A stretch of DNA of 64,000 bases from Ginglymostoma cirratum. Its lineage: Eukaryota. The notes below the pieces were generated by a model. The model worked only from the letters and a program-made list of their open reading frames with translations. It searched no databases and had not been told where the DNA came from. The stretch is from the NCBI GenBank assembly GCA_024137785.1, contig JAHRHZ010000144.1, positions 19,792,482 to 19,856,481 on the forward strand, in the 5' to 3' direction. Of this stretch, positions 1-62,159 are shown piece after piece; within the stretch, counting starts at the first letter, position 1; each line of letters starts with the position of its first letter. The translations under genes were made by a program, and so were the position numbers.

Positions 1-164
1 CCCTCTCTCCCTATTTATTTCAGAACCCTCTTCCCCTCCCCCATTTCTGATGAAGGGTTTAGGCCCGAAACGTCAAGTTTTCCTGCTCCTATGATGCTGC
101 TTGACCTGCTGTGTTCATCCAGCCCCATGCTTGTTATCTCAGATTCTCCAGCATCTGCAGTACC
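1..164 (+). mobile_element. PLE-associated short repeat (5'-truncated by the window edge) carrying a hammerhead motif
   Basis: Same sequence family as 53200-53350 and 3175-3304 (cccatttctgaNgaagggt...cccgaaacgtcaa...tcctgctcct...gatgctgc). Confidence 0.7.
43..78 (+). ncRNA. Minimal type-I hammerhead ribozyme motif
   Basis: attt-CTGATGA-a-GGGT ttag GCCC-GAAA-C-GTC-aagt: intact core, stem II, short stem I, predicted cleavage after C74. Confidence 0.6.
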
Positions 165-865
165 TTTTATCTCTTAGAGAAATCTCAGTTGACCAAGATA
201 TCTAGGGCATCTGCAAGCTCCACCACGCCTGAAAAAAACAGAACAGCTCTGCAATCAGGACTTTGGTTTCACTTTTGTAACTCAAACGACTCCAAAGACT
301 GCAACCTGCATTGCCCTTACCTCTTTGTCCGTTCTAGGTACCCCTCCTCCCCAACCTTCCAACTTTTAAACTTATTACTTATGTTTTTTATGAGCATTTG
401 TTATATCTCAGCTTTTTTTTTTTGGCTAATATTCCATGCTGTCATTCAAAAGAAACCCGTGGAATTGAATGACTTTCAATTTATTTGGCCAAGTAAGCTT
501 ATTTGAAGTGTAACAGCAATATGCTAAAAATGTTTAAAAAAAATTTGCTGCGAATGACTGAAGCCGGGTTTAAATACAGGAGAGTGTTGAACACTCCTGA
601 TCTTGTCGTCACACATGGCACTATAAAAGTTATCTATAGTTAACATAGTAAACTTTTATTTTCAGCAATGCATAACAGAAACAGCAGTAGGGCATGCAGC
701 CTTCAAACAACACCTGTGGAGAGAGGAACAGAATTAATTATTTAGACAGACATTAATTCTCTTTCTTTGCAGATGCTAATCAAGCTTGCTGAACAATTCC
801 AGCACTTTGTTTCTATTCCTTATGCATGTCACTGATGCTGCAAAATCTTTTCACGAACTTCCTAC

Positions 866-1021
866 CATCAGAATTGTTGGTATCTTGGTCACTGATAACA
901 GACACTGTGGGAATATTGGGTCCAGCAGACACTTGTTCGGTGCATACATCTGGACAGGAGGGCAACAGAGAATTGGCAGTGTTGGTAGAGTTAGCCGCCA
1001 TGGTGGGCAATAAGCGATCTT
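866..1021 (-). CDS. PIKFYVE: PIKFYVE exon (EDRLLPTMAANSTNT...DQDTNNSD)
   Basis: Acceptor cttgcag, donor G|GTAGGA; 156 nt, phase 1-1; divergent low-complexity linker, so the 3' boundary is less certain. Confidence 0.82.
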
Positions 1022-2131
1022 CTGCAAGACAGAATTTATTTTGATCATACAGTGGTTTCATAAGTTTGAGATCACAAAAGTTGATGCTAAATTTCACTAC
1101 CTATTTAATTGCTGCGAAAATTACTTTTAATAAATGTAAAACTTTAAAAAAATCACCAAAATAAAAGAGTTAAACTTATGCTTACAGATGGTCTATATCA
1201 GATAGCAGTATTTGTTGCATTCAAAAGTTTGTATAATATATATAAAAACTTCACCCTCTTTATAGCAATCATCCCTCTATTACACACGGTGCTTGAGTTG
1301 CAACGTTAATTCTACAATATACAGAATAGAACTTTAATTTCTGATCACATTGAAGATGTGTTGCAAACAAAGTCTTTCAGGCATGGTAGTAGTACAAACA
1401 TTGAGCTGCGAGATGATACATACATTTGAACCCTCAATTCTCCAGTAACAACTAAATAGTCTGTGAAATACCATCTAGCGAAAACAAGGTGGTCCCTGGA
1501 GGGGAATGGCAACCTTGCCTACTTGCAGAACAGAACACTGGACGTCACAGAAGCTGAATCATAAAGGGAGAACTATTCCCCATTTTCCACCCAAAATAAA
1601 CAAAAAAAACTGATGGAGAAAATGAGAGTACAACATTTCAGAAGAAATTTTCTTGACAGATGTACAAATAACTTTCATTAGTTCAGCTGCCAAATATGTT
1701 TGTACTTCAGTATTCCAAAATTAGGTTTCAGGTAATCTTTACTAAACAAAAGCAGGCTAAGAAGTTTATTTGAAATCTCTTTATTTTTCTCTTTGATTTA
1801 CATTGCTTCCAAGATTGGGAAATTGAATTTTAAAAAACGATATAGCTACTAGAACAGAATGCAAGTAAGCTTCATGCAGCTTGAGATCAACTCCTGTAAA
1901 GGAGCAACAAAAGAAAATAAAAACTGCATATACCAGAACCCATGAAGGTGAACAGCTCTGCCATGAGAAAGGCAGAGGCAATCTACAGGGTGATGAGGAG
2001 GCTTTAATCGATTAAGGGCACGAATAGACCACAGTCCAGAATGTGTATTTTAATAGAGATGCTTGGTTTAAGTTTTATCATAATGAAGCACTTTTCATAC
2101 TGATTAGATTTTGAAAAAGACCAAGCCAAAC

Positions 2132-2192
2132 CTTTATCGCCATTTGGTAGCCCTAAAGCTGAACTGCGTGGAGATGTATCCAGTACACTGCT
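2132..2192 (-). CDS. PIKFYVE: PIKFYVE exon (SSVLDTSPRSSALGLPNGDK)
   Basis: Acceptor tttccag, donor G|GTTTGG; 61 nt, phase 0-1; required to bridge the phases of the flanking exons. Confidence 0.88.
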
Positions 2193-3174
2193 CTGGAAAA
2201 GACGTTAATAACACACGATGAAAGAAATGGAAACTAAAAAACATAAAAGTTTGAAAGATCAACAAACGGTCAGATCAACAGTGCATTATGAATATGAGAT
2301 AAGATAGTAGTTTTTAAATTGTCGCTTCCAATTGAACGTAAAACAGCACTTTCTTAAAAAGGCGAATGGTATGCAGCTATGTTGGACTCCATCTGGTTAC
2401 AAGTCAAGTCACATTTACCATTTGAATGGAGGTCCAGGGTATAATTAATTGAAGCCTGCCATTTTCCACACCTGAACAGAAAGAAACAGTCAGCCATCCT
2501 TGCGCTGTGAAGACATGAATTCCCAGGCAGACATGCTGGCAGCAGCCATTACAGGCAACAGGGAAAAATATGTTCCCTACTAGCTACGAGGAAAAATGCT
2601 AATGAATGCTGCCCTCTGGACAAAGCGAAGAAACCAATAGAGATCCAGGGACACTGGAAAGCAATCATGAGGATGGGCTTTACTGCAGGAAGTTGTTTTG
2701 GGAATTTTCACAACTATGGAAAAGGACTTTTGATGGTCACTGAACATTACGATTTGATGAAATGGGGAGAAGTGGAAACAGAGTAGGAGCGACTTTGTAA
2801 AATCTGCAATTTTGCAGAGATGTATATACATGATGCAGTGTTATTGGTTATATTAAGACATTAAAAGAGTTATTACTTCTGTAGTTTAAAGCATTGCTTC
2901 CCAATCCTTTTGCAAACTGTGACTCTGCCTGAAATATTATGGGGGATGGGGGATGAGGGAGTAGACCTGCAAAGAATAGGGAATTGGTGGGGGGAGGGTG
3001 ATGCAGAGCATTTTCTGTCTTTTTATTAGATTTCGTGCACCTGCAATTCTTCATTTTATATTAAAATAAAACAAAATATAAATAATATAAAATGTGTGTC
3101 TCCAATGCAGAAAACAAAGCACTTCTGCTTTGCTGCCAACCACACTTTGGGATCAAGAAAGAAATGAGAAAGAG

Positions 3175-3304
3175 ATAATAGGTACTGCAGATGCTGGATA
3201 ATCCGAGATAACAAGGTGTGGAGCTGGATGAACACGTCAAGCTTTCCTGCTCCTATGATGCTGCTTGGCCTGCTGTGTTCATCCAGCTCCACACCTTGTT
3301 ATCT
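3175..3304. mobile_element. Fold-back mini-element (PLE-tail derived) with 16-bp TSD
   Basis: Perfect 30-bp inverted repeat 3206-3235/3275-3304; flanks aagaaatgagaaagag (3159-3174) and aagaaatgaaaaagag (3305-3320). Confidence 0.8.
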
Positions 3305-3430
3305 AAGAAATGAAAAAGAGTTGGACACTGAAGCACAGAGAATATAAATGAAACTGTAAATGAAATAAAAAGGGGGAAAAGGTTGCAATCATTAGTTGAG
3401 TTAATACAAGTTAGTCAATAAGTTGATTAC

Positions 3431-3521
3431 CTTGGTTTCTTCAGTTGACCTCAATCTACCAGGACTTGGTGGTACTGTTGGTCGTTTCCGACCCTTTTCT
3501 TGTTGAAACAGATCCTGTAGT
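3431..3521 (-). CDS. PIKFYVE: PIKFYVE exon (RLQDLFQQEKGRKRPTVPPSPGRLRSTEETK)
   Basis: Acceptor cttgcag, donor AAG|GTAATC; 91 nt, phase 2-0. Confidence 0.94.
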
Positions 3522-4079
3522 CTGCAAGAAAGGGATTGTGTTTAAAAAAAGTTCATGCTGTACTATAAAATTTATTAGAATCTACTGAGCTATCTAAACA
3601 AGATGAACACCTCGCCCCCCCCGCCCCACAAATTAAAAACAAAAACTGGTCTTATCTGCTCCAATTAGATAGCTGGCAATTAAATATTGTCAATCAATTG
3701 ACTATACAAAACTATATTTGATACAGCTTGTAAATAATAGGCTGTCACTGCTATTTGTTATTCAATAACCACTCTTCTTAACTTTAACTATTTTTAATCA
3801 ACTTGGTCAGTGATGTTAAGACATGTCTTTGAAGCAAGAGAGGATGTGACCCCAGGTCTCTGGCTCAGTGGTAGAGACAGTAAAACTACACCACATGATC
3901 TCGCAAACAATTTCAAACCAAAGCTTCAAGCTGCTTGAATGCAGTACAATGCTCTTTGTTTTTATGAGATATTAACGGTGTTATTTTAACTTTGTATTCT
4001 TATATGTAATGTAAATTATTAAAACCAATTACTTTGAACTAACAAGTATTTGAAGTCATTAGAGTAGCCTCAATCCCAC

Positions 4080-4234
4080 CTGTTATTCCAAGCCTGTAAC
4101 AGCTCACACAAATTCTGTTTCTTGGTAATTAAGCAATCGTCCAAAAATACCAACTGCTGAGGGCTGTCGATGGAGGAGGTCAGCAATCTTGCTTGAGTTT
4201 TTTCAAACCAGTTTAGAAACTCTGCCTCTTCCAT
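4080..4234 (-). CDS. PIKFYVE: PIKFYVE exon (MEEAEFLNWFEKTQARL...LCELLQAWNN)
   Basis: Acceptor gatacag, donor AG|GTGGGA; 155 nt, phase 0-2. Confidence 0.94.
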
Positions 4235-4372
4235 CTGTATCCACAAGGAAAACACATCAGCCTCAAGAAGGAACAAGTTTAATGAGAGGAAAGGGAGCTT
4301 TAAACATTAAACAAAATTTTGAACATTATTTTACATATGCGGTGTTCAAACTGGTTTGAAAAATATAGTTAC

Positions 4373-4481
4373 TTCTTTTTGTGCAAACAAATCTTCAATT
4401 TTTTCTTCTCTTGTTTTGTTGAAGGTATCCGTTTTCAGGGACACCAGGCGATCGTCCACTGCTGAGTAGATTTGTGATACT
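4373..4481 (-). CDS. PIKFYVE: PIKFYVE exon (KVSQIYSAVDDRLVSLKTDTFNKTREEKIEDLFAQKE)
   Basis: Acceptor ttttcag, donor GAA|GTAACT; 109 nt, phase 2-0. Confidence 0.94.
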
Positions 4482-4571
4482 CTGAAAAATAGCCAATATT
4501 CATTAATCACCATCTTTAATCAAATTCTCCATTAAGCAAGAATTTTTTTTGCCAACTGTGTTCAAACTTAC

Positions 4572-4685
4572 TTTTGTGAAAAATCCTTCAAATCCTGAAC
4601 AATCAATTGCTTTGATGGCAATTGAGGTTTGATGTATATTTCTAGTGGGGGAAGGCAAATTTCAAGTATTCTAATGGGGGAAAAG
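4572..4685 (-). CDS. PIKFYVE: PIKFYVE exon (SFSPIRILEICLPP...QDLKDFSQ)
   Basis: Acceptor ctaccag, donor AA|GTAAGT; 114 nt, phase 2-2. Confidence 0.93.
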
Positions 4686-5751
4686 CTGGTAGTAGAAAAA
4701 GTTAACATATTTATCAATCAATAGCAGCAATAATACATTTATCGTAAAAAGTAGTTTCTGAAAATGATGCAAATGAACATGTTTAAGATGCCACTAAGAT
4801 AGCTCAATTAAAAAACAAGAAAAATGAATAAACTGAACACAGAAACATTATTCTGCAATGACGATTAGAAAATTCTAGCCAATGAGTAGAAACGTTTTTG
4901 GTAAAGTGAACATTCCTTGTTAACATTAACAAGGTGGAACCGGGCAAGTTTGGATTTCCTCGTGCCGTTACAATTTCTGACTACAACAAAGCAGTGACTT
5001 TGAGCCCATCCTACTTCATTGTACTCTGCAGCCTTCAATAGATTGCCAAAATAAAAAACTGCAGATACTGAAAATCTGAAGTTGTGAAGAAGGAAAAGTC
5101 TCTGGACTCAAAGCATTAACTCTGCTTTCACTCTGTCAGATGCTATCAGACGTGCCAAGCTGCTCCAGCAATACATTTCGTATGTGTAAGTTGCTCCTGA
5201 AGCTTTTCACAAGGGGCCTTTAGAGATGTTTTGGAAATGAAGGAAGAAGAGTTAAGTTCCCTGAGGCGCAGGACATTGAAGTTAGCTCCAATGTCATCGA
5301 TGACCTCGATATTATATGCTTAACTGACTACATGGCAATCATACTTTGGAGACAATTGAGAAACCATACCAGCTCAGGGTATTAATCATTCTGGATAAAA
5401 GATCTGATGCTTCACAAATACAGCAAGTGATTGACAAAACACATCAAGGAACAAAAATCATGCAGATAAAGATAATCGTAGATAAGACTTAAATGTTATT
5501 CGCTCAAGTGTAACTCTTATATGGATTTAAATAATTTGCTAAATGTGCAATGCTCACAAAATAATTTGCATGAAACTATGACAGGAACATTTCACATCTT
5601 CCATTAAGAATAACCAACTACTCAGCGGTGGATTTATATGGTTTCCTAAACATTAATAAAACTTCTTAGATGAATGTAAACAAAATTTTGATTTAAAGCA
5701 TCGACTATGAGCACAGCATGCTAAAACAGATATGACTAGACTCTTATTTAC

Positions 5752-5930
5752 CTGAATGATGCAACCATTTGATTATAGGAGAAATACTGGTGATAATCAT
5801 GATGCATCGAGTGACCACAAGGCTCTGCATTTGCTCTGCGGGTATACTGATAGCCATAGAATCTTAACTCCAAATACTTGGCAAAGGACATAGACCAAGA
5901 ATCCCCGGACAGCGGAACCACTGGAGTTAC
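5752..5930 (-). CDS. PIKFYVE: PIKFYVE exon (VTPVVPLSGDSWSMSFAKYLELRFY...QMVASF)
   Basis: Acceptor actgcag, donor AG|GTAAAT; 179 nt, phase 0-2. Confidence 0.96.
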
Positions 5931-6059
5931 CTGCAGTAATACACAATACATCACGTACAGTGTAGAAAACAAAATATTTCATCTATTGAATAAACTTTGG
6001 GAGAACACGACTTAACTTTATAAAATGGCTATCGCACGCAAGTGATTATTTTGAAGTAC

Positions 6060-6231
6060 CTGTTTACATATTCTGCACCAAGAGTATGTTAGTATTGTGT
6101 GTTGATAACCAGGAACAGGAGAGTCCAGCTCTTTTAATACAATCTGTACACAACCATTGCCATGCACAAAACGGCGTATATGATGCACCATAGGTGTCTC
6201 ACAGAACATGCTGGGACACTGATAGGAGGGT
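6060..6231 (-). CDS. PIKFYVE: PIKFYVE exon (RPSYQCPSMFCETPMVHHIRRFVHG...SWCRICKQ)
   Basis: Acceptor tttgcag, donor CAG|GTACTT; 172 nt, phase 2-0. Confidence 0.96.
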
Positions 6232-7403
6232 CTGCAAAGAAAAACAGAATATTTAACGTGTAAAATTCCCAATATTTAAAACCATAAAAGGTTTTGATAT
6301 TTATAATTGTATGGCATTTTGGAATTTGTTACTATTTCAAGATCCTTTTCAGTAATTCTGTTGATGTTTTCGTCAAAAGCAAAGTATCTTTGCCCATAAT
6401 TAAATGTTTCAAGAGTGTTCTGTTATGTCGGTTCTTCAAATTATGTACTGCATTATCTACTAGCAAGGATCGCAGTAGGAATTAGTGCAACCTAAGTCAC
6501 CAAATCATGCAAAGCAGTGAGGCAATTAGCAGCAAATCCTTTATCCTATTAAACAAATCCTATAATTAATAAACTTTACATCATGAATCAAATTAAGTAT
6601 TTGTTGTAAATAAATAAGCCACACTATTCATGCCGACTTATCAGCCACAACAAATGCCCAGAGTTTTAGTTACTATTGTCAACCTGTTCAACATGTTATG
6701 ACACACCTGGGAGGTGAGACCTGAACCTGGGCTCCAATGTTTTTTTATACATTGCTCTAGTAACTAATAAGGATACCTTTTGCAAGATTATTTTATGCAC
6801 TTGAAATACTGCAAGTCAGAATCTGCAACTGGTAACCGAAGCCACCAAATAACCTCAATGAACCACCTGTTCTCTCTTACACTTGAACTTGTGACTATAG
6901 ATACAGGCACTATAAAAAAAATTTAAACAGAAAAACTTGGATCAACAAATCAGTTCCTCTACATCAAAACATGATTTTGAATCAGCATAAAGACACAAAC
7001 ATTAGAACAATGGAACCTTACCATAATTTAGCAATAGTTACCAGTCTGATAGACGAAAAAAACTAAGTTTAAAAATGGCTAAATTTGAAATATCAGCTGT
7101 GCAATAAACAGAGGCCTTTGAGAGTAGTGTCTATTGATAGGCAGCTATCATTTGCAGGTCTAAACACCTCACAGTTCTATAGCAACATAAGCTGAAGCAA
7201 TCAAGAAATGCAAAAATAATTAAAACTTTGGTTACAGTTTAAATGGAATTAACAAGATTCTCAAATCCAAAGTGTGGTTTGAATCTATAATGAGTTGGGA
7301 GACCTTGACAACAGACTTTATGTAGAATTTAGCACAAATAAAAATCTGTCAAACCAGTAAAATAATTTTATTCCTGAAAATAATGGAGAATCACCATACT
7401 CAC

Positions 7404-7475
7404 CTAAAGCAGTACCTTTCCAAAAATATTCCCAAAGTCAGATCATTTTTTCCATAAAATTCCATTGTGACAATC
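7404..7475 (-). CDS. PIKFYVE: PIKFYVE exon (WIVTMEFYGKNDLTLGIFLERYCF)
   Basis: Acceptor cttttag, donor AG|GTGAGT; 72 nt, phase 2-2. Confidence 0.95.
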
Positions 7476-9627
7476 CTAAAAGTACAATCAACATTATCAA
7501 TAATTAAACGTATTTGTTTAAAATAAGTTCAGTAATAATCATGCATAGTTAAAATAGTAATTATTTCAATTCATGTCAGAACAATTCATCACATTTTTAA
7601 AATTTTTGGCAATGCCTAACAACGTGGAAGTAAATTATTTCACAGATGGTCTGTACTGGAGACAAATGATTCTCAATGAATTATTTCACTCATGCTCTTT
7701 AGTGTATTGGCAAAAAAAAACATTTCTGTATGGATTTTAGGTTGTAGACAGGAGGAAAACATTTCTTAAATTATTTCAATATTGTGGGATTAAGTCAACC
7801 CAAACGTCATAATATGGATTTGAAAAGGTTACCTATAAAATTGATGAAATGTACAATAACATTAAGAATTTACAAGATTTTTAATTGAAATAAAGTGTTA
7901 CATCAATCAAAAAGCTTGCACATACAATGTGCTATTCATAAACATAAACATTTCATAAAAAAAACATACCGGCAATTGGAAAGATCTCAACCTAGAAAAG
8001 AACATTACCTACTCAGTTTCACCTTTTCATTTAGAAAATTAATAACCCTTGTCTTCTGACATCATAAATTAAGTGTGTTTGCAGGCAAGTTGCACTTTAG
8101 CCACTGCCTCATCAATGTCACCTCTTGTGTGTTGTGGTCATCCTTGAATCAGAAGTCGGGAGACTCAAGTCCTGCTCCAAAGCCTTAAGGACAATAGTGA
8201 ATGGAGTATAATCCTGCTAAGGGTTGCAGCTTTCAGATTAGACCTTAATATATGGCCCAGTGACTTTTCTCTCGTAATTATAAAAGATTCCTTGGCACTA
8301 ATCAAACAGCAGCAAGGATATTTACTCAATGTTCTAGCCAATAACTACTCAATTAATATTGCAGAAAAAATATCAGCTCATTTGTCTCATTACTATTTGT
8401 GCACACTTCATCTGACATTTCGCTCAGATACCAACGTAAATATATTTCATTTGTCGTGAAGCAGCTTGAAACTGAAAAGGACAAATAGATATGCAAGTTC
8501 ATTCTGTAATGCTGCTGCAGAGCAAGCTGTTAACATTTTCTAAAGAAAAATAGCTTACATTTATACTGCGGCTTTAGCATACTAAAATTGCTGAGGTTTG
8601 TATGGCTGTTTTCTCCAATGTCCTTTTAAAGAAGAAATGCCTTCCTCTACTCAGTGTCTCTTGACTGGTTAACAAAGCACAGGAAATGAAAAAGCTAGAA
8701 TGTCACACTTGGATCCAACATGTATTCACTATAAAGTAAATGTCACAGCCCTATTGATATAAAATGCAATATAATTAAATGTACAGCATTAAACCATTCC
8801 ATTACAAGCTATTGCAAAGCCTCTTCTTGTCACCAAACAATAAAGCAAGAGGCTGAGGAAGAACCACCAGCTACAACACCTCTTTGAAGCTGATGGCTAG
8901 TTCAGGATTTAGTCTGTGGTTAGATTAATGACAAAACCCTGAAATTAGTTTTTTTTAGGTACTGCTCTACCACAAGCCCACAACCCACAGCATCAGCAAA
9001 TCACTGAAATTAGCTGATGTGGCACTTATTTCCTCATATTTCACTATCTCAAATGATTATAGGATTCCCTAATTGTTCAATTAGGGGTGACTGGGCATTT
9101 ACTGGTGATAGGATTTGCACCTTTTGTTAATAGATTTGGTACAAAAATATTAATTTGTTAAATACCACTGTCATGATTCCTTGTTAGATTTCTTAAAGAC
9201 CAGTAATTGCAATTTATGCCTTCAAACAATTATTTCCAATCATTGTTTTTCTCTTTATAAATTTCCAAGAGGAATTTAACGTGTGCTTTTCATTTCTTGG
9301 CTAGCTATCTAAGAATTCTTTAGCGAGATTGGTTGCTTGGATAGCACGATGATATCACAGTAGGATCAAGCTGGGAATCCATGCTGATGTATGTGGCAAC
9401 CGACTGCAATGTAGTAGGTAATGGTTCTATGACTAGATCTCTCACTGAGGCTTTATTTAAAGTCATCTGTGAATAGCCATTGTTGCCCTGAAAACAAATT
9501 TCAAAGGTTCTCTTAATTCCATCAACTTTTATGTTATGTATAGTTCGATATTTTGAGCTCAATGAAAATAATTATACAAAATGGCAATGTAGTCAGATAA
9601 TTTGAATGAAACAATACTCAAGAGTAG

Positions 9628-9814
9628 GAGATAGCAAGAACTGCAGAAGCTGGAATCAAAGTCAATACAGTGTGGAGCTGGAGGAACGCAGGAGGTCAGG
9701 CAGCGTCAAAGGAGCAGGAGCATCCTGGTTAAGGGTCCCGAAGCAAAACGCCAACTCTCCTGATCCTCTGACGCTGCCTGACCTGCTGCGTTCCTCCAGC
9801 TCCACATTGTAATG
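9628..9814. mobile_element. Fold-back mini-element with decayed hammerhead centre
   Basis: About 58-bp inverted arms 9663-9720/9757-9814; the centre ctggttaagggtcccgaagcaaaacgcc resembles the ribozyme core. Confidence 0.7.
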
Positions 9815-10309
9815 CTCACGTGTATATGGCGACACAAACATAGCTATCCCTACTTCAGATAATTAGGACAAAATAAAGACAAAATTAAGGGATTTGTGGA
9901 CCTTATTCAAACCGATTATAATTTTCAACTGGCTCCTAGGATTCATTTCATGGAGTATATATCAGATGGTAAGCACTCCATCTTCACACATCTTTACAAA
10001 GACTGAAGTTAGCAATACGTGACTAGTACAAAGTTACCACAAAATTTGTTCTTCCCATGTTGTTATTTACTACAAAATACATATTCAGCAACATACTGCA
10101 TATACAAGGACAGTGTAAACAGCACACTGGATTTTCATGCAAAACAATTATAAACACTAGGCTTCCAAAAACAAATTTATGCATTTTCCGATCTTGGAAC
10201 ATTATCGTAAATATTTTTACTGATTTTAAAAAAAACTAGATAAACTGTATTTGTACTGACAAATGAAGAACGAGGGACAAAAATAAGAGGGGGCACTGGC
10301 AGCATATTT

Positions 10310-10735
10310 AAACAGGAAATAAACATAAACAGGAAATAAACATACACAGGAACAGGAATAGGCCCATTCAGTCCCTCGATTGCCCAAATTCCTTAATATC
10401 TGTGCAGAACAAAAATGTTTCTACCTCATAATTAAAATTAACAACGGATCCTGCATCCGCTGCTATTTGTGGAACAGTTCCAAACATCGATCACCCTTGC
10501 GTCTAGAAGTGTTTCCTAACAACTCTCCTAAATGATCTGCCCCTCATTTTCAGATGATGTCCCTTAGTTCTAGAATCCTCAAATAGTGGAAATAGTTTAT
10601 CTTTATCTACACTGTATTTTTCTGTTAATATCTGGAAACATTCCTCTTAACATTCTAATTCCTGGAGAAGACAACCCAAATTTGGATAGTCTCACCTCAT
10701 AACTCAACTCCTTAAGTCCAGGTATCACACAACCA
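10310..10735 (-). mobile_element. CR1-type LINE 3' fragment
   Basis: Decayed GLKELSYEVRLSKFGL C-terminal CR1 ORF2 peptide; short tandem aacaggaaat tail. Confidence 0.7.
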
Positions 10736-10812
10736 GTGTAGAGTTCAAATTTACAGCAAGTTTTCCGAAAAAATTTAAGACTAAATAAAGTGAAAGCAAA
10801 ATGTTTACTCAC

Positions 10813-10913
10813 CACGGACTAACACATGGATTTGGTGCATTGCTTGACTGAACAGAGGAACTACTGAAGAGAACACAAAGCTTCTGATGATTTGCAGGGC
10901 TCAAACAGTCCAC
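10813..10913 (-). CDS. PIKFYVE: PIKFYVE exon (VDCLSPANHQKLCVLFSSSS...PCVSP)
   Basis: Poly-T tract with ttccaag acceptor, donor TG|GTGAGT; 101 nt, phase 0-2. Confidence 0.94.
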
Positions 10914-12533
10914 CTTGGAATCAAAAAAAAAAATACACCTGACAAACACATTCCGACTAACAGTCAAAAACGCTGCATTCATTCCTATGGTTTATGCAGA
11001 CAAAAGCATCATGCTCACACACCAGTGATTGACTCAGTACTCAAGCTTGCCATTGTTTGTACGACTTTTGGGTCCACATGTTCACCCAGTGGATTCCTCA
11101 ACCAATAAAAACCTGAATGACAAAGTCATGATTACTTCACCGTCAAGTCAGTCATCAGAGAAGCTAAAAATTAATTTACCCGATTTCTGTTATAAAATTT
11201 TAAGTTTTTTTTAATTCATCTGTGGGACGTGGGCATTGTTGGCTGGACAGCATTTATTGCCCAGCCCCAGCGGTCCTTGAGAAAAGTGGCAGCGAGTTGC
11301 CTTCTTGAACCACTGCATTCCATGTGCTGTGGGTGGACGCACAATACCATCAGGGAAGGAATTCCAAGATTTTAACCCAGCAAAGAGACAGATGTATTTG
11401 TAAGTAAGCATGTTGAGTGGTTAGGAGGGGAACTTGCAGGTGGTGGTTTTCCCATGTATCTGCTGTTCTTGTCCTTCGAGATGGAAGTGCTCGCAGGTTT
11501 GGAAGGTGCTGTCTAAAGATCTTTGGTGAATTGCTGCAGTGCATCTTGTAAATAGCACACACTGTTGCTACTGACTGTCAGTGGTGGGAAACTGTGGATG
11601 TGATGTCAATCGAGCAGGCTGCTTTGTCCTGGATGGTGTCAAGCTTTGAGTGTTGTTGGAGCTGCTCCCATCCACGCAAGTGGGCAGTATTCCTTCACAC
11701 TCTTGACTTGTGCCTTGTTGATGATGGGCAGGCTTTGGGGAGTCAGGAGACATGTTACCCGTTGCACACTTCCTAGCCTCTGACCTGTTGTGGAAGACAT
11801 TGTCTTTATGTGGCCAGTCAAGTTGAGTTTCTGGTCAGTGTTAACCAAAGGATGTTGATAGTGGAGAATAGTGGTAAATTCAGTGATGATAATACCATTG
11901 AATGACAAAGGACGATGGTTAGGTTGTTAGAGACAAGAGCTGGCTTTTGTGTGACACAATTGTTACTTGCCTCTTATCAACCCAAGCCCAGATATTGTCC
12001 AGATCTTGTTGCATTTGAACATGGACTGCTTCAGTATGGAGTTGTCGCAAATAGTGCTGAATTATTCTATAATCATTGGCGAACATCCTCACTTCTGTCC
12101 TTACGATGGAGAGAAGGTCATTGATGAGGCAGCTGAAGATGGTGATGCCCAAGAAACGATCCTGACGAACTCCTGCAGCCAAGATGACTGACTTTCAACA
12201 ACCACAACCATCTTTCTATCTGCGAGAAATGACTCCAACCAGGGGAGATATCCAATGATTCCAGTTTTGCTAAGGCCCCCCGGATGCCACACTTGGCTGA
12301 ATGTGGCCTTGATGTCAAGAGCTGTCATGCTCACCCCATCTCTGGAATGCAGGTCTTTTGGCCATCTTTAAAACAAGGGTATAACAAGGTCGGCAGTTGG
12401 GTGGCCCTGGCAGAACCCAAACTGTGCATCACTAAGTAGGTTATTGCTGAGCAGGAGCTGCTTGATAACACTGTTGATGACACCTGTTGATTGAGAGTAG
12501 ACTGACAGGGAAGTAACTGATGAAGTTGGATTT

Positions 12534-12883
12534 CACAGAATCATAGAATCCCTACAGTATGGAAACAGGCCCTTTGGCCCAGCAAGTCCACACTGCCCCT
12601 CTGAAGAGCATCCCATCCAGACCCATTCCCCTATCTCTGTATTTCCCATGTCTAACCCACCTAACCTAAACATCCCTGGGCACTATGGGCAATTTAGTAT
12701 AGCCAATCCACCTACCCTGCACAGCTTTGGACTGTGGGAGGAAACCAGAGCATCCAGAGGAAATTCACGCAGACACGGGGAGAATATGCAAACTCCACAC
12801 AGACAGTCACCAGAGGGTGAAATTGAACACAGATCCCTGGCACTGTGAGGCTGCAGTGTTAACCACTGAGCCACCGTGCTGCC
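12534..12883 (-). mobile_element. HE1-type tRNA-derived SINE nested in the LINE
   Basis: Reverse complement begins ggcagcacggtggctcagtggtta (A box) with a B-box-like gttcaattt; ends in the gattctatgattct tail; LINE sequence resumes on both sides. Confidence 0.88.
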
Positions 12884-13550
12884 ATGCTTTGTCCTGCTTT
12901 TGTGTACAATACATACCTAGGCAGTTTTCCACATTATTGGGTAGCTGCCAATGTTGTAACTGTACTGGAAGAGTTTAGCTAGGGGAGCTGCAAGTCTCTG
13001 GAGTATACACCTTCAGCGATATTGCTGGAATGTTGACAGAGTCCATCGCCTTTGCACTATCCAGTGTTCTCAACTGTTTCTTGATATCACGTGGAGTGAA
13101 TCGAATTGGCTGAAGATGGATATCTGTAATGCTGGGGACCCCTGGAGGAGGCCGATATCGATCTTCCACTCAGAACCTCTGGCTGAAGATTGCTGTGAAT
13201 GCTTCAGTCTTATCTTTCGCACTGTTGTTCAGGCCTCTTCCATCATTGAGAGTTGGCATATTTGTGGAACCTTCTCCTCCAGCATGTTGTTTAATGGTCC
13301 ACCATCATTCAAGACTGGATGTGACAGGACTGCAGGGCTTAGGTCTGGTTGTGGGATCGCTTAGCTCTATCACTTGCTGCTTATGCTGTTTGGTGTGCAA
13401 GCTGCCCCATCAGTAGCTTCAACAGGTTGACACCACATTTTTAGCTATGCCTGGTGCTACTTCTGGCATGCTTTGCTGCACTTTCCATTGAACCAGGGTT
13501 ATCCCCTGGTTCAATGATAATGGTTAAATGGGGGGGGGGGGGGGGGGGGG

Positions 13551-13650
13551 NNNNNNNNNNNNNNNNNNNNNNNNNNNNNNNNNNNNNNNNNNNNNNNNNN
13601 NNNNNNNNNNNNNNNNNNNNNNNNNNNNNNNNNNNNNNNNNNNNNNNNNN
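13551..13650. other. Assembly gap (100 N) preceded by a G21 run
   Basis: Seen directly in the sequence. Confidence 1.
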
Positions 13651-14137
13651 CCCAAGAGATGCTGGGCCATGAGCTGCAGATTATGCAGGAGTACAATTCT
13701 GCCGTTGATCGCTCACAGTGCCTTATGGATGCTCAGTCTTGAGTTGCTACATCTGTTCGAAGTCTGTCCCATTTAGTAAGGTCATAGAGCTACACAACGT
13801 GATGGAGGGTATTCTCAATTCCTCCTAGAATACCTTTTATCAAAGCAGTTTCACTGCAGAAGACTTCTAGTTCATTCGTTTTGACTTTCTTAATCCTGGT
13901 GATTACTCAGACTTGTTAGCATAACTGTTCTAATGCAACGGAAAAGTTAAAGACAGTTTATTAATGCAATTCAGAGGGAAACAAATCAACGATGCTATCT
14001 TAATTGCTAAAATTGTAATGTATTCAAAGTAATGGCATGTTATTCTCTTATGTCTGCAGCATGCCTGCAAACATGTTCTAAGTCACATCTGGCGCATTAA
14101 TACACCAAATTCAGAAGAACTTAAATTTATCCATAAT

Positions 14138-14348
14138 AAAAACCAAATGAACTGAAGATACTGTAAATCAGAAACAAAAACAGAAGTTGCTGACAAAGTT
14201 CAGCAGGTCTGGCAGCATCTGTGAAGAAAAAAATCAGAGTTAGCATTTCAGGTCCAGTGACCACCGGACCCGAAATGCTAACTGACCCTTTTTCTTCACA
14301 GATGCTGCCAGATTTGCTCAGCTTTTCCAGCAACCTCTGTTTCTGTTC
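14138..14348. mobile_element. Fold-back mini-element with 15-bp TSD
   Basis: About 85-bp inverted arms meeting at ggtccagtgaccaccggacc; flanks aaatttatccataat (14123-14137) and aaatttatccatgat (14349-14363). Confidence 0.8.
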
Positions 14349-14804
14349 AAATTTATCCATGATCATATATTACCGGGCACTGACGAATTGCCAAACTTTC
14401 CCAATTACATGTCATTTAAGGACTGTATACAAATATCAATATCTTCTGGAATTCTTAGCATTTCAAGACGACCGATTGGCTTGCTAGGTCATTCAAGAAG
14501 GCATTAAGAGTCAACCATATTGTTGTGTGTCTTGACTCGAGTGGTGCAATTCAAAACCATGCCCTACAGAAATAGCCAAGTCCTCTGGATTACTAGTTTA
14601 GTCACACTGCCACTACGCTTGAAAAACATTGGAATTGTCAAGTTTACAGTTAACAAAAGCATGGATGTCTGTTGCAGCAGCAGATAAGCTGAGAAAGGGC
14701 AGATTTCAGCAATGACAGTTGAAAATACACGGCCTTAGTGATAGCACAGTTTTGTGTTCAGAAACTCAACCCGGGATCAAAGGTTAGGAACAGTATGGTT
14801 CATG

Positions 14805-15725
14805 AAATCATAGAGTCACAGAATAATACCGTACACAAGAGGCCCTTTGACACATCGTCTCTACACAGATACGCGAGAAGCACTTGGCCTTCAACCTAAT
14901 CCCATTTACCAGCACTTGGTCAATAGCCTTAAAATGTTATGACATGCCTAGCTCACATGCAGGTACTTTTTAAAGGATGTGAACCAACTCACTTCTACTA
15001 CCCTTACAGGCAGCATATTCCAGGCTGTCACCACCCTCTGAGTCAAAAAGTACTTATGCATTTTCCCCCAAACCTCCTGCCCCTCACCTTGAACCCGTGT
15101 CCCCTCAACTGACTCTTCAACTAAGGGGAACAGCTGATCCTTGTCCACTCTCTCCATGCCCTTCAATCTTGTACACCTCAATCAGATTTTCCCTTCATCA
15201 TTTCTGCTCCATTGAAAACAACCCAAACCTACCCAACCTTTCCTCATGACTTGAATTTTCCATCCAAGGCTGTATAGTGGTGAATCTCCTCTGCACCCCC
15301 TCCACTGCAATCACATCCTTCCTGTAATGTGGTGACCAGAACTGCGCTCAGTAATTTAGCTGAGGTCTCACCAAGGTGTTATACAATTCCATCACGATTT
15401 CCCTGTTTTGGTATATACCTCAACTGATAAAGGCAATCATTCCATATGCTTTTTTCACTACCCTACTAACATGCCCTTCATCTTTCAGAGATCTATGGAT
15501 AATCATGCAAAGATCCCTTTGTTCCACAGAAATTCCTAATGACATGCTGTTCGTTGAATACTTTCTTGTCAAACTACTCGTTCAAAGTGCATCACCTTAC
15601 ACTGTTCAGCATTTAATTCTATCATTTATCTGCCCAGTTGACCATCCCACTTATATCTTCTTGTAGCTCAAGACACTCAACTTCACTGTTAAACACCTGA
15701 CCAATTGTTGTAATAGCATCAAACA
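14805..15725 (-). mobile_element. CR1-type LINE 3' fragment
   Basis: Decayed peptides LKGMERVDKDQLFPL and FLTQRVVTAWNMLP. Confidence 0.8.
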
Positions 15726-16222
15726 ATTTCCACAGAACATAATGGAATTGGTAGCTAGTGAACAATGTCTCCTGCAAAGTTAGGGTTGGGGAGTGGTATC
15801 TGCAGTCTTCCCAATATTTAAATTGAGTAAATTATTATTGTTCAAACTCTGTATTTTAAATAAGCAGTCTGATAAATTAGCAACATCAAAAGGAGTTGAG
15901 AGGGATGGTGGTGAGATGAACCTTCATATCATCAGTACACACATGAAAGCTGACACACTGCTAGTGAATGATGTTGCTGAGTGCAAACAAGTCGCTAGGA
16001 AGTATGAACGGCAAAGGATAAATTATTTTGGAGACGCCAGAAGTAACGCTGGAAATGCTCAGGTCAGTGAACATCTGTAGAGAAGGGATCAGAGTTAACA
16101 TTTCAGTTTGATGACATTCCATCAGAATTGGTTGAAATTAGAAACATTAAAAGGTTTTGAACAAGTAAAATTGTAGGGGGAAAATTAAAATGCGAAAGTC
16201 TGTGACAGGTGGAAGACAGAAG

Positions 16223-16576
16223 AACAGCGCAGTGGCTCGGTGGTTAGGACTGCTGCCTCGCAGCACCAGGGACTTGGGTTCGATTGCACAGTTGCTCGCC
16301 AGTGGAAATTTCACAGACATTCGCCCCAGGACTGTGTGGGTTTCTTCCGGATGCTCCAGTTTCCTCCCACAGTCCAAAGATGTGCAGTTTAGGTGAACTG
16401 GCCATGCTAAATTGCCCATAGGGCCCAGGGTTGTGCATGCTAGGTGGGTTAATCATGGAAAATGCAGGGACGGGGGAAGAGGGATGGGTCTGGGTGGGAT
16501 GCTCTTCGGACGGTCAGCATGGAGTCAGTGGGCCGAATAGCCTGCTTCTACATTGTAGGGATTGTACGATTCTGTG
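16223..16576 (+). mobile_element. HE1-type tRNA SINE
   Basis: gtggctcggtggttag...gggttcgatt A/B boxes, conserved core cccacagtccaaagatgtgcag, gattct tail. Confidence 0.85.
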
Positions 16577-16836
16577 AAAACAACAAGAGCTGGTTATGCA
16601 AGATCAAAAGATGTGGCAATGGCACAGATCTGGTGAAAGATGCATCAGCCTAAAACGATAGCTGTTTTTCTCTCCACAGATGTTTTGAGTATTTCTTGCA
16701 TTTTCTACTATTTGTTCAGTGGTTGAATGCATCTTATGTTCAATGCGTATTTTTCTAAATTGGGTAGCTGATTAGAAATTTACATGTATGTCATAAATAA
16801 ACTGTTTTCACAAATTTAAAAAAAAAACTTTCTTAC

Positions 16837-18053
16837 CTTTGACGCCCACACAAACTCATTTTGGGTTTGCCCTCGTGGGATTTCCTCTTCCCCATTTTTC
16901 ATGGTTGATTTACTGTTATCCTCTTTGCTCTGCAAAAAATGATCGTCCAGTTTGTTCTTGATCCTACCACCTCTAGCTCGATAATCAGCTAAAAGCTTTG
17001 ACAAGCTCTGGTTATTTCCTAAGGAATGAGTTATTCTGGTACTCAGCAGATCATGAGATGGAAGAATTTGAGTGCTTTTTGCCTGCATATTACCATTCAG
17101 ACTTTGAAGGTTTGTCAAGTCCTTTAGTAGTTGTTTCTTCCTCCTGCATTCTATTTCCTTTATATCTTTGTGCAAGAGAGGGGACCAATAGACTTGTTCT
17201 GGGAAGTAACCTCTTGTTGGACACTTCATACCTTTCTCAGTCAATAGGAAAGGCTCTTTGAAAGTAATAAAAGGAGATATGCAAAGAATGACATCTTTAA
17301 GTTCCTGCTTGAATGCAACAGAGTAGGATTTCAACCGATCTTCAGAGGAAGTAACATGTTCAGTAATGAACAGATCTGTATCATCCTGAAGGGGATCACG
17401 GAAACGTTTAGGTCTGTTTCCGACAGATGGTTCAGAGTTATTTAACAAACTGGGTTGTTCACGTAAGAATGCATGGTAAGTGTCTGAAGGCCCTTGGTCT
17501 TTCTTGTTTTCAGATAAGATGGAGTCTATTACAGGGGCATGGACAGATGACGTCAAAGGAGGGTCAAGAAAAGGTGTCTCAAAATCTGGAGGGGCCATAT
17601 CAAGTGTGGACCCCTCAGGTTTTACAAAAATACTGTCTCTGGAAACACTTCTTCTCAATGGCTTCTCTTCTTCACAAAACGTATTATCTTTTGGATAGTC
17701 AAAACTGGCAGTTGGTGCAAATTCAGATCCCAAGGAAATGTCTTCAATTGGACCATCAGAGTCTTTGGAAAGACTGCCAAAGTTCTCATCAGTAAACAAG
17801 TCCTGTCCATCATTTTCAGCAGTCTCACCATCAATAATGGAATGAATTGATCCACTTTTAGATAAACTTGGGGGCATGGCAAACTCATCCATGAGAAAAG
17901 AAAGCTCCAGTCGAGAATGATAAGCTACACAGATCATGAATATAATAATTTCTTTCACTCTTGCTAATTCATATTCTGTAGCACCTCTCAGCTTCACAGT
18001 GCAGCCCAAATGTTGGGGGCAACCTTCAAAAAACATGAGTGTCTTTATGTGAC
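16837..18053 (-). CDS. PIKFYVE: PIKFYVE large exon (GHIKTLMFFEGCPQHLG...LLADYRARGG...FVWASK)
   Basis: Lies inside the 486-aa ORF; acceptor cacctag, donor AAG|GTAAGA; 1217 nt, phase 1-0. Confidence 0.96.
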
Positions 18054-18893
18054 CTAGGTGGAGAAAATGGAAATAAATTAGTGACATTTCCAAACTGTCT
18101 GTTACATTGCATACAGTAGCAAAGACATCCACATATAAAAGCTGCCAATCAGTACATTTTAATCCTGATCTGATGTAATCTGCAAACGCTCTTGATAATT
18201 TTTTTTTAAAAAAAAAATTGTTCCGTTTAAAGCTTTTTGCCAAACTGTCAAAGTAATCCTGTAAGAGGCCTTTCAAGATGGGTCGAATGGCCTTCTTCTG
18301 TATTGTAAATTCTATGATTCATAGCAGATTAAAAATCACTCCGTATGCAAGGCAAAACATGAATTAAAGCAAGAGCTGGCAGAATGCCACATTCTACTAA
18401 TTCCTATATTGGCTGTTTATGCCATAATTTGGAATTACAAATGCACGAAATAGTGAAAATGCTGGTTTGCAAATAGCATCAATAATTCCCTTACTATAGG
18501 AACAATAAATCGTTACGTCTATTTTATGTCTTGCAGAACTCAAAGTTTTTGCTTTTTATGAACAGGACAATTTTTAAAGAGTAATTAATTGGAATTTTCT
18601 AAGAACAGATGATAATACAATACATTGGGCTATAACAGTCTCCCAATTGTACCCCGAAGTTTACTCTGATTTTTAATTAATTGAAACTTCCCCAAATCGA
18701 GAAAGGAATAAAAAAGCAAACAATGGTTTTGTGGATATTTATTGCTCGAAAGATAGCAATGTAGCAAACTAGAACCTTTGAACTAATATCCAGTCTGCAC
18801 CTAGTTAGCTGTAAGGCCACTAACTTAGCAAGATGTGAAATATTAAAAAATTCCTATTTAATGTAAGCATTCTCTGAAAGGGGTCGGTGATTT

Positions 18894-18915
18894 GTATGTA
18901 TGTATGTATGTATGT
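18894..18915 (+). repeat. (GTAT)n microsatellite
   Basis: gtatgtatgtatgtatgtatgt. Confidence 0.9.
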
Positions 18916-19132
18916 GCGTGAGCATGTATAAGTGGTGTGGAATACGATAGAGGGCACATTAAGCGAGCAAAAAGAAAGGTTTCACTGCCACAACATTCTG
19001 AGGTGAAATGATTTACGAACATCCAATTGTCCAGCTCTCATACCACCACAGAACTCACGTAACCACCACATAGCCTCTTTCAGAAAAAGGAGCAAAAATG
19101 ATTCTGTAGAAGCAAGGTGCAAAATTACTTAC

Positions 19133-19259
19133 CATTAGGTAGTTGGAAGGGTTGAAGGAAAAATTTATGGCATGTTCCAAGACGAGGCTTTGTAAGAAGT
19201 TGGTCCATTGACATGACCAAATCACCCTGGGTAACACGACTCACTCGCTCTAGCACTTG
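19133..19259 (-). CDS. PIKFYVE: PIKFYVE exon (QVLERVSRVTQGDLVMSMDQLLTKPRLGTCHKF...PN)
   Basis: Acceptor tgcatag, donor G|GTAAGT; 127 nt, phase 0-1. Confidence 0.95.
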
Positions 19260-19766
19260 CTATGCACAAAAACAAATAAGATGTTCGCAGTCATCAGTTT
19301 CCACTGAAATAAAACTTGAAACGACACCGCTTACATCTCTCCCCATCAAAAACAGATTAAATCAGAAATAGCACACAATTTATAATTTTTTTTGCTTGTC
19401 AACCCAATCAGTGGTTCAGTGTGCCTGCACATTTCACTACATTTTCTTTGGACTAACCTAAGGACATTCAGCCAGATTAATAATGTCTTTTTTCCAAATA
19501 AGATTTGAAACACCAGCTGTATTAAGATAATAATATGAACTGCAGTGAAGTTCCTCAAAATACCACAGAAAAAGTACCTCAATCAACTTTTATAGAATTT
19601 CAAACTCACGGAAACATTTATTCAATTCAAACATATTTTGAATACCTACATAGCAGTTGATTTCCTTCGTATTAAATAAAAACATGAACCATATCAATTT
19701 GTACGGATAACGTATCACCAAAAAGTCAAGGTGTTAAATGCTGACTGACAAAATTGGGAAACTTAC

Positions 19767-19907
19767 TTGTTTTACGTTTATCACTAGGGTAATTCCATTT
19801 TCCAGAAGCATATCTTGAGCAATACGAGAAACAGTCTTTTCCACAAGAACCAGATTTGGTCGAACATCCACTATTCGTTGCACATAATTCTTCAGAAATT
19901 CTCTTTC
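19767..19907 (-). CDS. PIKFYVE: PIKFYVE exon (EREFLKNYVQRIVDVRPNLVLVEKTVSR...INVKQ)
   Basis: Acceptor tacttag, donor CAA|GTAAGT; 141 nt, phase 0-0. Confidence 0.95.
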
Positions 19908-20123
19908 CTAAGTACCATAATGAGGATAACACTTACTCTGTGATTTATAAACTATACATGATTAAGTGAAGATTTGAAAATCAAACTGAACTTTGTCTCA
20001 TCAATTAGCTTTCTGCAAAATAGTGCAGCTAACCTGCATCCAAATGCAGACTAGTATTTAGGAATGCACAACAGCAGTAAATGATTTTCACAAACAAGTT
20101 TTAACACAATTTAAAACACAAAC

Positions 20124-20231
20124 CTGTAGGACAATGGGATCTATGCATGTAAACTTTGTCTCCTCTCGATAGAGGTATTCAATAGAGCATTTCAACAGCA
20201 GAATCTTTGGATTTTTTATGTGAGGGTTCAT
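20124..20231 (-). CDS. PIKFYVE: PIKFYVE exon (MNPHIKNPKILLLKCSIEYLYREETKFTCIDPIVLQ)
   Basis: Acceptor ttcttag, donor CAG|GTTTGT; 108 nt, phase 0-0. Confidence 0.95.
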
Positions 20232-20348
20232 CTAAGAAATATTAGAACAATAGTTGTATTAAAAGGATACAAATGAGCACAATCATTTCAAGTAACAAAC
20301 TTTCAAATGTAAACAATAATTAGCAGATGACTGAAATTTCACTGTTAC

Positions 20349-20423
20349 CTTTTTATGAGCTATGTTCTTGGTACAAACGAACCCATTAACCACTGCAGAA
20401 TCAAACTTTTTGCCACCTGGTAT
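20349..20423 (-). CDS. PIKFYVE: PIKFYVE exon (IPGGKKFDSAVVNGFVCTKNIAHKK)
   Basis: Acceptor tttgcag, donor AAG|GTAACA; 75 nt, phase 0-0. Confidence 0.95.
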
Positions 20424-20492
20424 CTGCAAAGCAAAAACAAACAAATAGAGTAAATATTGGGATACATTTGATGTCTAGCAAGCAGTTCCATT

Positions 20493-20594
20493 TGTTCTGA
20501 GGAAAGATCACTCGACCTGAAATGTTAACTCTGATATCTCTCCACAGATGCTGCCAGACCTGCTGATCTTTTCCAACAATTTCTGCTTTTGTTT
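20493..20594 (+). mobile_element. Second family of hammerhead-motif short repeat
   Basis: gtt-CTGAGGA-a-AGATC actc GACCT-GAAA-TGTT-aac followed by the cacagatgctgccagacctgctga tail that is also at 14280-14345 and 26750-26820. Confidence 0.65.
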
Positions 20595-20699
20595 AAATCC
20601 ATTTGTTACTTAGAATTGAAAAGATTATTTTAAAATTAGTTTTATCATTAATCTATTCAAAAAGTGCATACAAGACTTGCGTTCATGATTTTATTACTT

Positions 20700-21095
20700 A
20701 TTCATTATGTAGCATTTGTTATGAACATGGAACATTCAAGCGCTTTTAAAGTGTTGTCAATGTAGGAAACACGACAGCTAATTTTTGCACAGCAAATTCA
20801 CACAGATAGCAATGTGATAACGACCAGATAATTTTCTTTTGTGATACTCATTGAGGGATAAATATTGTTCAGGGCATCGGGGATCCTATTCTCACTCTTG
20901 AAATGGTGGTATGCGACCATTTAGGTCCCTAGAGGAGGCCACAGAGGCAGATGTCTCATCTCAAAGCCAACACCTCTAATAATACTGCACCAGAACTATA
21001 GCTTTGAATTTTGTGCTCAAGTAGTGAAGTGTGACTTGAGCACTGAACCTACCGACTCAAAAGATGAGAGCACTACCCATCGAGCTACAGCCGAC
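20700..21095 (-). mobile_element. Old tRNA-derived SINE (probably Deu-domain/SacSINE1-like)
   Basis: tRNA-like head at about 21030-21095 on the minus strand; similar decayed copies at about 8140-8480 (+) and 41020-41280 (-); family assignment from memory. Confidence 0.5.
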
Positions 21096-21562
21096 AAGTA
21101 ATGGCTAAAAACAAAACCATTAGAAGTTCTAACAAGTAGAGATTTTTTTTGGTGGGTTGTGCTAACATGAATCTTTGTAAGCAGAACACATCTTTTAAAC
21201 CAAAAGGTAATTTGTATGGGTTGATTTTAAAATTCACTCGTGCAACACAGGCATCCCTGGCTGGCCAACATTTATTCCCTGTCCCTGGCTGCCATTAAGA
21301 AGGTACTGCTGAGCTACCTTCTTGAACTGCTGCAATCCATATTCTGTAGCTAGACCCATAAAGTCACTAAGGAGGGAATTCCATGGTTTTGACTCAGGAC
21401 AGTGAAAAAACGATATATTTCCAAGTTAGGATGCTGAGTGACTTGGAGAGGAGCTCGCAGGTGTTGGTGTTCTCATGTATCTGCTGCCCTTGTCCTTCTA
21501 GATGAAAGTGGTTGTGGGTTTGGATGGTACTGCACGTGAAACTCAGATTCAGCATTTGATAC

Positions 21563-21743
21563 CTTTTTTATATGAACAAATTGGCGGATATCCATGTCAT
21601 CATCATTGTTCTTGACATCTGGACGCACAGCCTGTACAACCTGGCGGACCACAGGAACAATTATGTCTCTCCAGGACAGTGAGAGGGACTCGCTATATAG
21701 CAGTTGCTGCAACAAGGCCATCATATGGCTATGGTTAGCTGAA
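21563..21743 (-). CDS. PIKFYVE: PIKFYVE exon, start of CCT-like domain (SANHSHMMALLQQLL...DIRQFVHIKK)
   Basis: Acceptor catccag, donor AAG|GTATCA; 181 nt, phase 2-0. Confidence 0.95.
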
Positions 21744-22736: not shown

Positions 22737-22866
22737 AGTAATCTCTCCATTGCTTGTTTCTCGCCATTTTCTTCCCTAAGATGTTCCAGGGAACTGTGAT
22801 GCCAACCAAGTGGTGTAAAAAGAAGATCTTTGGACTTTTCTTCAACACGACGATTAAAGAGAGATT
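22737..22866 (-). CDS. PIKFYVE: PIKFYVE exon (ESLFNRRVEEKSK...EENGEKQAMERL)
   Basis: Acceptor tctccag, donor CT|GTGAGT; 130 nt, phase 1-2. Confidence 0.94.
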
Positions 22867-23622: not shown

Positions 23623-23685
23623 CTTTAATAAAAGCATCACTTATGCCAATGACCTGTTGTACTCCATCTTCAGATACCAAGAACT
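23623..23685 (-). CDS. PIKFYVE: PIKFYVE exon (EFLVSEDGVQQVIGISDAFIK)
   Basis: Acceptor ttgacag, donor G|GTAAGC; 63 nt, phase 1-1. Confidence 0.9.
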
Positions 23686-52740: not shown

Positions 52741-52779
52741 ATGAAATCAAATTTTTAAAAATGAGTTTTGGGCAGCTCC

Positions 52780-62121: not shown

Positions 62122-62159
62122 CTAATAAGTCAAACACAAGCTTAAACATCAAACTAATT

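Follow-up and report, generated by a model that had tools for sequence, protein, structure and literature searches.

Minimal hammerhead ribozymes were described in the pLTRs of metazoan Penelope-like elements (PLEs) by Cervera and De la Pena (2014; PMC4209133), with low activity as dimers and with a bulged base after A9 among their listed traits. For PAc, a Poseidon PLE of Anolis carolinensis, Frangieh et al. (2024; PMC11167929) reported that the hammerhead cuts only with protein and that uncut RNA is the main substrate, and the tail of the element was traced to RT initiation at two internal sites. Craig et al. (2021; PMC8557442) gave the length of PLE tails as 30-40 bp and treated the role of PLE hammerheads as an open question. 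Retrozymes, as characterized in PMC7229834, are noncoding tandem units of 150-450 bp with canonical hammerheads, and those of the axolotl reach up to 120,000 copies (PMC7229834; 10.64898/2026.07.22.740005). Sharks are not named in the covered main-text portions of PMC4209133, and the literature searched contained no description of a shark or elasmobranch Penelope hammerhead family; supplements, which lay outside the search, may list shark motifs.

We analyzed a 64,000-nt stretch of the Ginglymostoma cirratum contig JAHRHZ010000144.1, referred to as the window, whose left edge cuts through a young PLE copy (Table 1). The motif at 43-78 is a real copy of the known PLE minimal hammerhead, and as a single copy it is ordinary; the new clue is that a few percent of the copies of the family start at the predicted cut site. 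With good confidence, we interpret 43-78 as a minimal hammerhead in the 3′ pLTR of a young and abundant RT/GIY-YIG PLE, lying in an inverted insertion antisense to PIKfyve, together with the mechanism that we propose below for the family.

Sequence, abundance, and variation of the hammerhead motif

Stem I is formed between 43-46 and 75-78 by U-A, U-A, U.G, and A-U pairs, and stem II (GGGT-TTAG-GCCC) by three G-C pairs and a U.G pair. C71, G72, T73, and C74 precede the AAGT of 75-78, with GUC as the cleavage triplet. The sequence traits of minimal hammerheads are all present: the order of the core, the bulge at A54, G55-C66 as the G10.1-C11.1 pair, and the palindromic 15.2-16.2. The initial annotation had read the complete core (CUGANGA, GAAA, and GUC), an extra A before stem II, a 4-bp stem I, and the palindrome ACGU in place of stem III, and each of these was found at its position. 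The motif resembles the minimal hammerheads of PMC4209133 in being of type I, in having a stem III reduced to a palindrome, a bulge after A9, the G10.1-C11.1 pair, and a short stem I, and it differs from the schistosome families described there in stem II, which has 4 bp here and 7-8 bp in those families.

Table 1. Coordinates of the hammerhead, the element end, and the host gene in the window
Feature	Positions	Strand	Evidence or remark
3′ end of a young PLE copy (end of 3′ UTR, pLTR, and tail), by sequence; extends left past the window	1..174	+	
Minimal type-I hammerhead ribozyme motif	43..78	+	motif reading, copy counts, older-copy alignment
Stem I, 5′ strand ATTT	43..46	+	the element RNA probably also begins here, with A43
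Core CUGAUGA (47-53) and bulged A54 between positions 9 and 10.1	47..54	+	
Stem II, 4 bp, loop UUAG	55..66	+	10.4:11.4 is U.G, U-A, or C-G in other copies
GAAA (67-70), palindrome ACGU (70-73) replacing stem III, and C74	67..74	+	predicted cut 74/75
Stem I, 3′ strand AAGU	75..78	+	just 2-3 contiguous pairs in older subfamilies
Optional PLE tail, ~35 bp	141..174	+	two classes of 3′ ends; RNA reads break at both
Target-site duplication (TSD), 12 bp, right copy	174..185	+	its left counterpart adjoins the inverted arm, ~5.9 kb beyond the left window edge
Exons of the host gene PIKfyve	915..62128	-	FYVE domain, PDB match, exon order

The hammerhead motif at 43-78 is not a chance match. A 28-mer of the motif matched once in the window and in none of 100 shuffles, the exact 31-mer occurs in 30,099 copies genome-wide, and the motif with N7 and loop II left free occurs 92,290 times, the reversed controls of both genome counts giving 0. 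A hammerhead descriptor was also run on 80 systematic 10-kb stretches, where it returned 16 rows representing 14 distinct sites in 360,484 readable bases, compared with 0-1 per shuffle in 10 shuffles; because 43 of the 80 stretches were all N, the genome copy numbers are lower bounds. The total stands against ~4,000 motifs in coelacanth and ~9,000 in Xenopus tropicalis (PMC4209133), and a third of the motifs here are identical, whereas that report stresses heterogeneity. A scan of window positions 1-2000 with the Rfam hammerhead models, the check that the initial annotation had proposed, did not recover the motif and gave no hammerhead match even at E 10. At least two further hammerhead families are present in the genome (L149, L167, L114, L135, and L118), one form having a 5-bp stem II with GUU at the cut and another a 6-bp stem II.

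To follow variation, older copies were chosen by their flank at 79-140 and not by the motif; 55 were found, 21 of them with the upstream flank, of which 10 were below 95% identity. Changes common to at least three of these 10 copies affected all five N7 and loop II positions and none of the 11 in the core (Fisher p = 2e-4), and position 11.4 was altered among them too, from U.G to U-A. The exceptions in the core were CpG-type transitions in at most two copies, plus single changes. Within the clade, 0 of 11 core positions and 8 of 61 positions of the downstream flank had changed (p = 0.34, not significant), in a comparison where the flank had served as the search query, which favours conserved flanks. 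No lineage-level change within the clade was seen in the three G-C pairs of stem II. Stem I is less constant, being broken after 2-3 pairs by a U.C or A.C mismatch in older subfamilies, and its pair 2.3:1.3 is U.G, G-C, or A-U across families and mismatched in the older subfamilies. A diverged family (L114), with 37% amino acid identity in GIY-YIG, keeps the core; its stem II has 5 bp, and its pair 2.3:1.3 is G-C or A-U. At positions 75-78, the youngest and largest subfamily has AAGU, giving four contiguous stem I pairs, and older ones have AAGC, AGCU, or AACU, giving two to three.

The predicted folds disfavour the active hammerhead form. The minimum free energy structure predicted for the monomer (−9.3 kcal/mol) mispairs the core, compared with −3.4 kcal/mol for the hammerhead fold, and monomer stability was not significant, with z from −1.68 (36 nt) to +0.28. 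For the dimer, the predicted double hammerhead reached −5.1 kcal/mol, against −28.8 kcal/mol for a competing dimer. The weak stem I and these predictions would fit the low, dimer- or protein-dependent activity that has been reported for PLE motifs (PMC4209133, PMC11167929, and PMC6765202).

Ends of element copies and a possible record of cleavage

The sampled copies have two classes of 3′ ends, at ~134-145 and ~171-182. An end at 177-178, drawn from the first 20 paralogs, was rejected as a product of their selection for likeness to this copy, the true end being 173/174.

For the 5′ ends, we sampled the first 100 listed of 57,809 copies carrying an anchor sequence (79-108), of which 83 were readable and 17 were unreadable and dropped. 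Ends between 24 and 79 were found in 49 of the 83, those at 37 and 38 probably being indels, and 21 of the 49 fall at 42-45, where 3.5 are expected (p = 5e-12). Another 12 of the 49 fall at 52-54, about half of them fold-backs, and no known RNA end lies there. Around the predicted cut, two of the 83 readable ends lie at 75-76, and the wider interval of 74-76 also has two of the 49, which is no excess (p = 0.75). A pile-up at −102 was discarded as a 5′ end, since it reflects an indel relative to the reference copy. The base before 43 is G, a candidate cap-derived base, in four of nine readable junctions, and CCATTTC at 41-47 matches YYANWYY, the initiator consensus. A43 is therefore the likely start of the element RNA, most of which would be copied without having been cut.

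Genome-wide, junctions were counted with patterns that demanded three mismatches before a given start. Positions 73, 74, 75, 76, and 77 gave 55, 108, 398, 375, and 125 starts, and an A-rich microhomology control with an AAA start, at position 68, gave 144, about threefold below position 75. When 30 copies starting at position 75 were inspected, 28 proved to be true junctions, ~18 of them to non-element DNA, and in at least two of the 30 (L267 and L271) the TSD ends exactly before A75. Many of the junctions at 75-76 are fold-backs with short AG overlaps, and at position 76, 28 of the first 100 listed look like single-A deletions in a manual count. A rough correction for the deletions and the filter brings positions 75 and 76 to ~700-800 each, against 120-290 for the controls; together the two positions would account for ~2-3% of the anchor copies, an excess of roughly three- to sevenfold over controls.

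The peak at 52-54, which has no known RNA end, indicates that microhomology alone can make peaks, and because of this we regard cleavage as an evenly balanced question. The excess at 75-76 is a possible trace, in the genomic junctions, of hammerhead cleavage in vivo. That the genome records two 5′ ends of PLE RNA, with about one-quarter of copies starting at the transcription start and ~2-3% at the cut, and hence cleavage in the germ line and insertion of cut RNA, is a proposal that we could argue equally well either way. If it is true, germ-line cleavage by a minimal PLE hammerhead, in a genome with more than 90,000 intact motifs, is followed by reverse transcription and insertion of the cut RNA. 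The near-identical young copies number in the tens of thousands, so that RNA ends can be read from their insertion junctions. Intact motifs, more than 90,000 in all, are dispersed in introns, and a genome-wide deficit of sense copies would be a test of their cost to the host.

RNA reads on the full-length junction numbered 22,324 from 12.9 million records in X18 and 7 in X19. In X18, the pLTR was covered at a depth of ~5,500 in each direction and the ORF start at 20-310, and 93% of the reads continue into unlike sequence; no place has many ends, in a fragmented poly(A) library that looks unstranded and cannot show a cut. For PAc, PMC11167929 reports no RNA-seq ends at the cut, whereas here a small excess of genomic copies starts there.

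In the mechanism that we propose for the family, the element RNA would begin at about A43, so that the ribozyme forms its first 36 nt. After nicking the target, the element protein would initiate reverse transcription within the leader, either near 140 or near 174, and so produce the two 3′ ends; most cDNAs would run off the uncut RNA start (42-45) or go on through tandem units. Two ribozymes may pair via ACGU, probably helped by protein, and cut a small share of the RNAs at 74/75; these cut RNAs would leave a few percent of copies starting at 75-76.

An unlikely but serious alternative is a decayed hammerhead that no longer cuts and persists through its overlap with the promoter or RNA start, the 75-76 peak being a microhomology artefact. 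The weak stem I, the unfavourable predicted folds, the origin of most copies from RNA reaching 42-45, and the many fold-backs with AG overlaps at 75-76 are all what such decay would give, and hammerhead mutants left the in vitro insertion of the anole element unaffected (PMC11167929). However, the 11 core bases are spared by variation, which occurs at tolerated positions instead, and the core is kept in the family with 37% amino acid identity; as for the peak, the AAA-start control is about threefold lower than position 75, and the TSDs ending exactly before A75 in at least two of the 30 inspected copies are likewise difficult to reconcile with an artefact.

The parent element

We compared window positions 1-178 with the genome and found 40 other best-scored places at 97-100% identity. 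The paralogs share their 3′ ends and have many 5′ truncation points, and the longer ones encode RT and GIY-YIG on the same strand. In longer copies, the same pLTR sequence follows the GIY-YIG ORF, and in tandem copies, it precedes the ORF; inverted arms are present in many element loci. One copy (L061) has an open frame of 803 aa with Pfam matches to RVT_1 (29.9 bits; cut-off 29.6) and GIY-YIG (23.9 bits; cut-off 22.6). Another natural copy (L057), near full length, has the order pLTR-ORF-pLTR, a single frameshift, and two hammerheads separated by 3,546 nt; its upstream pLTR continues into the ORF after position 174, with the ATG ~40 nt further. A short upstream ORF of ~40 codons starts from window position 91, 16 nt past the cut, and stops two bases before the main ATG in L057; it may possibly serve translational control or be due to chance.

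The translations of the element protein contain DKG (as KPADKG), YIDD, and a C-x4-C-x2-C linker before GIY-YIG, and the endonuclease has C-x2-C inside GIY-YIG and two His downstream (CCHH-type). A PDB search with the element ORF gave two weak unrelated matches and nothing else. In three copies (L057, L058, and L059), the N-terminal domain is separated from the RT region by a repeat rich in Thr, Ala, Asp, and Pro whose length varies. Judged by these sequence marks, the repeat appears to be the end of an RT and GIY-YIG PLE of the Neptune/Nematis type. The C-terminal GIY-YIG, DKG, and CX2-5CxxC linker are shared with Neptune/Nematis (PMC8557442), as are an inverted 5′-truncated arm and a 30-40 bp tail, whereas the junctions seen here, unlike those of Neptune/Nematis, are not (TA)n microsatellites. 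The element resembles PAc (PMC11167929) in its pLTR-ORF-pLTR organization, in a hammerhead near the ORF start, and in two 3′ ends separated by a tail. It is not a Poseidon element, since the CX2-5CxxC linker is present, and its ATG lies ~140 nt past the cut, downstream of the tail; in PAc, by contrast, the ORF begins within stem II. As with the PLEs of PMC4209133, the motifs occur mostly singly in truncated copies, with opposite-strand pairs and with tandem pairs ~3 kb apart.

The initial annotation had assigned the repeat to a PLE, which is borne out by the RT and GIY-YIG matches above the Pfam cut-offs and by the pLTR-ORF-pLTR copy, and had seen in it a non-autonomous, retrozyme-like derivative. 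Its reading of a minimal type-I hammerhead, of PLE membership, and of an intronic position stands, and its non-autonomous, retrozyme-like part does not: the repeat consists of the 3′ pLTR and tail of a PLE that codes for protein, and this copy belongs to an insertion of ~6 kb. It had 178 bp of the element before it because the window edge cuts the element, and many copies are 95-130 bp stubs, which explains the impression of a short non-autonomous unit.

We consider it very improbable that a short ribozyme unit spreads on its own RNA as a non-autonomous, retrozyme-like element mobilised in trans. Such stubs make up about half of the sampled copies, their starts lying at the ribozyme or within it, and some have TSDs; there is one short partial tandem (L218) and one 94-bp direct pair; and retrozymes are reported in the one chondrichthyan genome of a study that derives retrozymes from PLEs (10.64898/2026.07.22.740005). 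Like non-LTR retrozymes (PMC7229834; 10.64898/2026.07.22.740005), the family has a type I hammerhead, PLE ancestry, and a very high copy number. Against this, the copy at 43-78 is part of an insertion that includes GIY-YIG DNA, the stubs have the same ends and subfamily variants as ORF-bearing copies, and the loci examined contained no tandem array of 150-450 bp with canonical hammerheads, the copies being dispersed or inverted. The stubs resemble abortive copies of the parent element rather than the monomers of a tandem retrozyme. The unit here, unlike a retrozyme, is the end of a coding element and has a minimal hammerhead, and a non-LTR retrozyme was rejected as a class because of the RT/GIY-YIG ORF and the lack of tandem canonical hammerheads in the loci examined.

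The insertion in PIKfyve and other element traces

Left of the PLE copy, past a stretch of unreadable DNA that adjoins the left window edge, lies an inverted arm of the same element, with 893 readable bp that code for GIY-YIG, are 98% identical to L057, and end at the equivalent of base 55. The same 12-bp TSD borders this arm and the right end of the element, and both parts are therefore one inverted insertion of ~6.07 kb, a layout already described for PLEs (PMC3846280). The exons of PIKfyve succeed one another from 62128 to 915, and the following one lies left of the insertion. The matches are weak at 915-1022, the nearest exon (E 0.002), and strong at 3428-3538 (E 1e-11) and in the exon beyond the insertion (E 1e-15); three PIKfyve exon searches in PDB gave no match. 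The window is mostly PIKfyve, with FYVE, a chaperonin-like domain, and an exon of ~1.2 kb at ~16834-18075, and the kinase exons lie left of the window.

With PIKfyve exons on both sides and on the minus strand, in agreement with the intronic position first proposed, the hammerhead is intronic and antisense to the PIKfyve pre-mRNA, the host intron being placed by protein homology and its splicing not seen in RNA reads. In antisense orientation, it would not cut the PIKfyve pre-mRNA, and the arm that is sense to PIKfyve lacks stem II and the cut site. This hammerhead copy is likely an inert passenger in the PIKfyve intron, and the single insertion by itself gives no sign of selection. That an intact, intronic motif has been domesticated by the host to act on the PIKfyve pre-mRNA, like the conserved amniote intronic hammerheads, is extremely improbable: the motif is antisense to the gene and shares its sequence with 30,099 other copies, and the insertion is very young, retains an intact TSD, and has a sense arm that stops at base 55, before stem II.

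Other traces of such elements are scattered through the window. An older-subfamily pLTR at 53214-53353 (78% identity), also antisense to PIKfyve, contains an intact hammerhead at 53258 with U-A in place of U.G in stem II. At 3170-3308 lies a fold-back mini-copy consisting of an inverted arm (element 111-175) and a forward arm from about base 70, without the 5′ half of the ribozyme. Two pLTR pieces at 9625-9804 form an older inverted pair whose ribozyme has decayed, and a diverged PLE has left a decayed fragment of GIY-YIG (46% identity) on the minus strand at 47804-48010.
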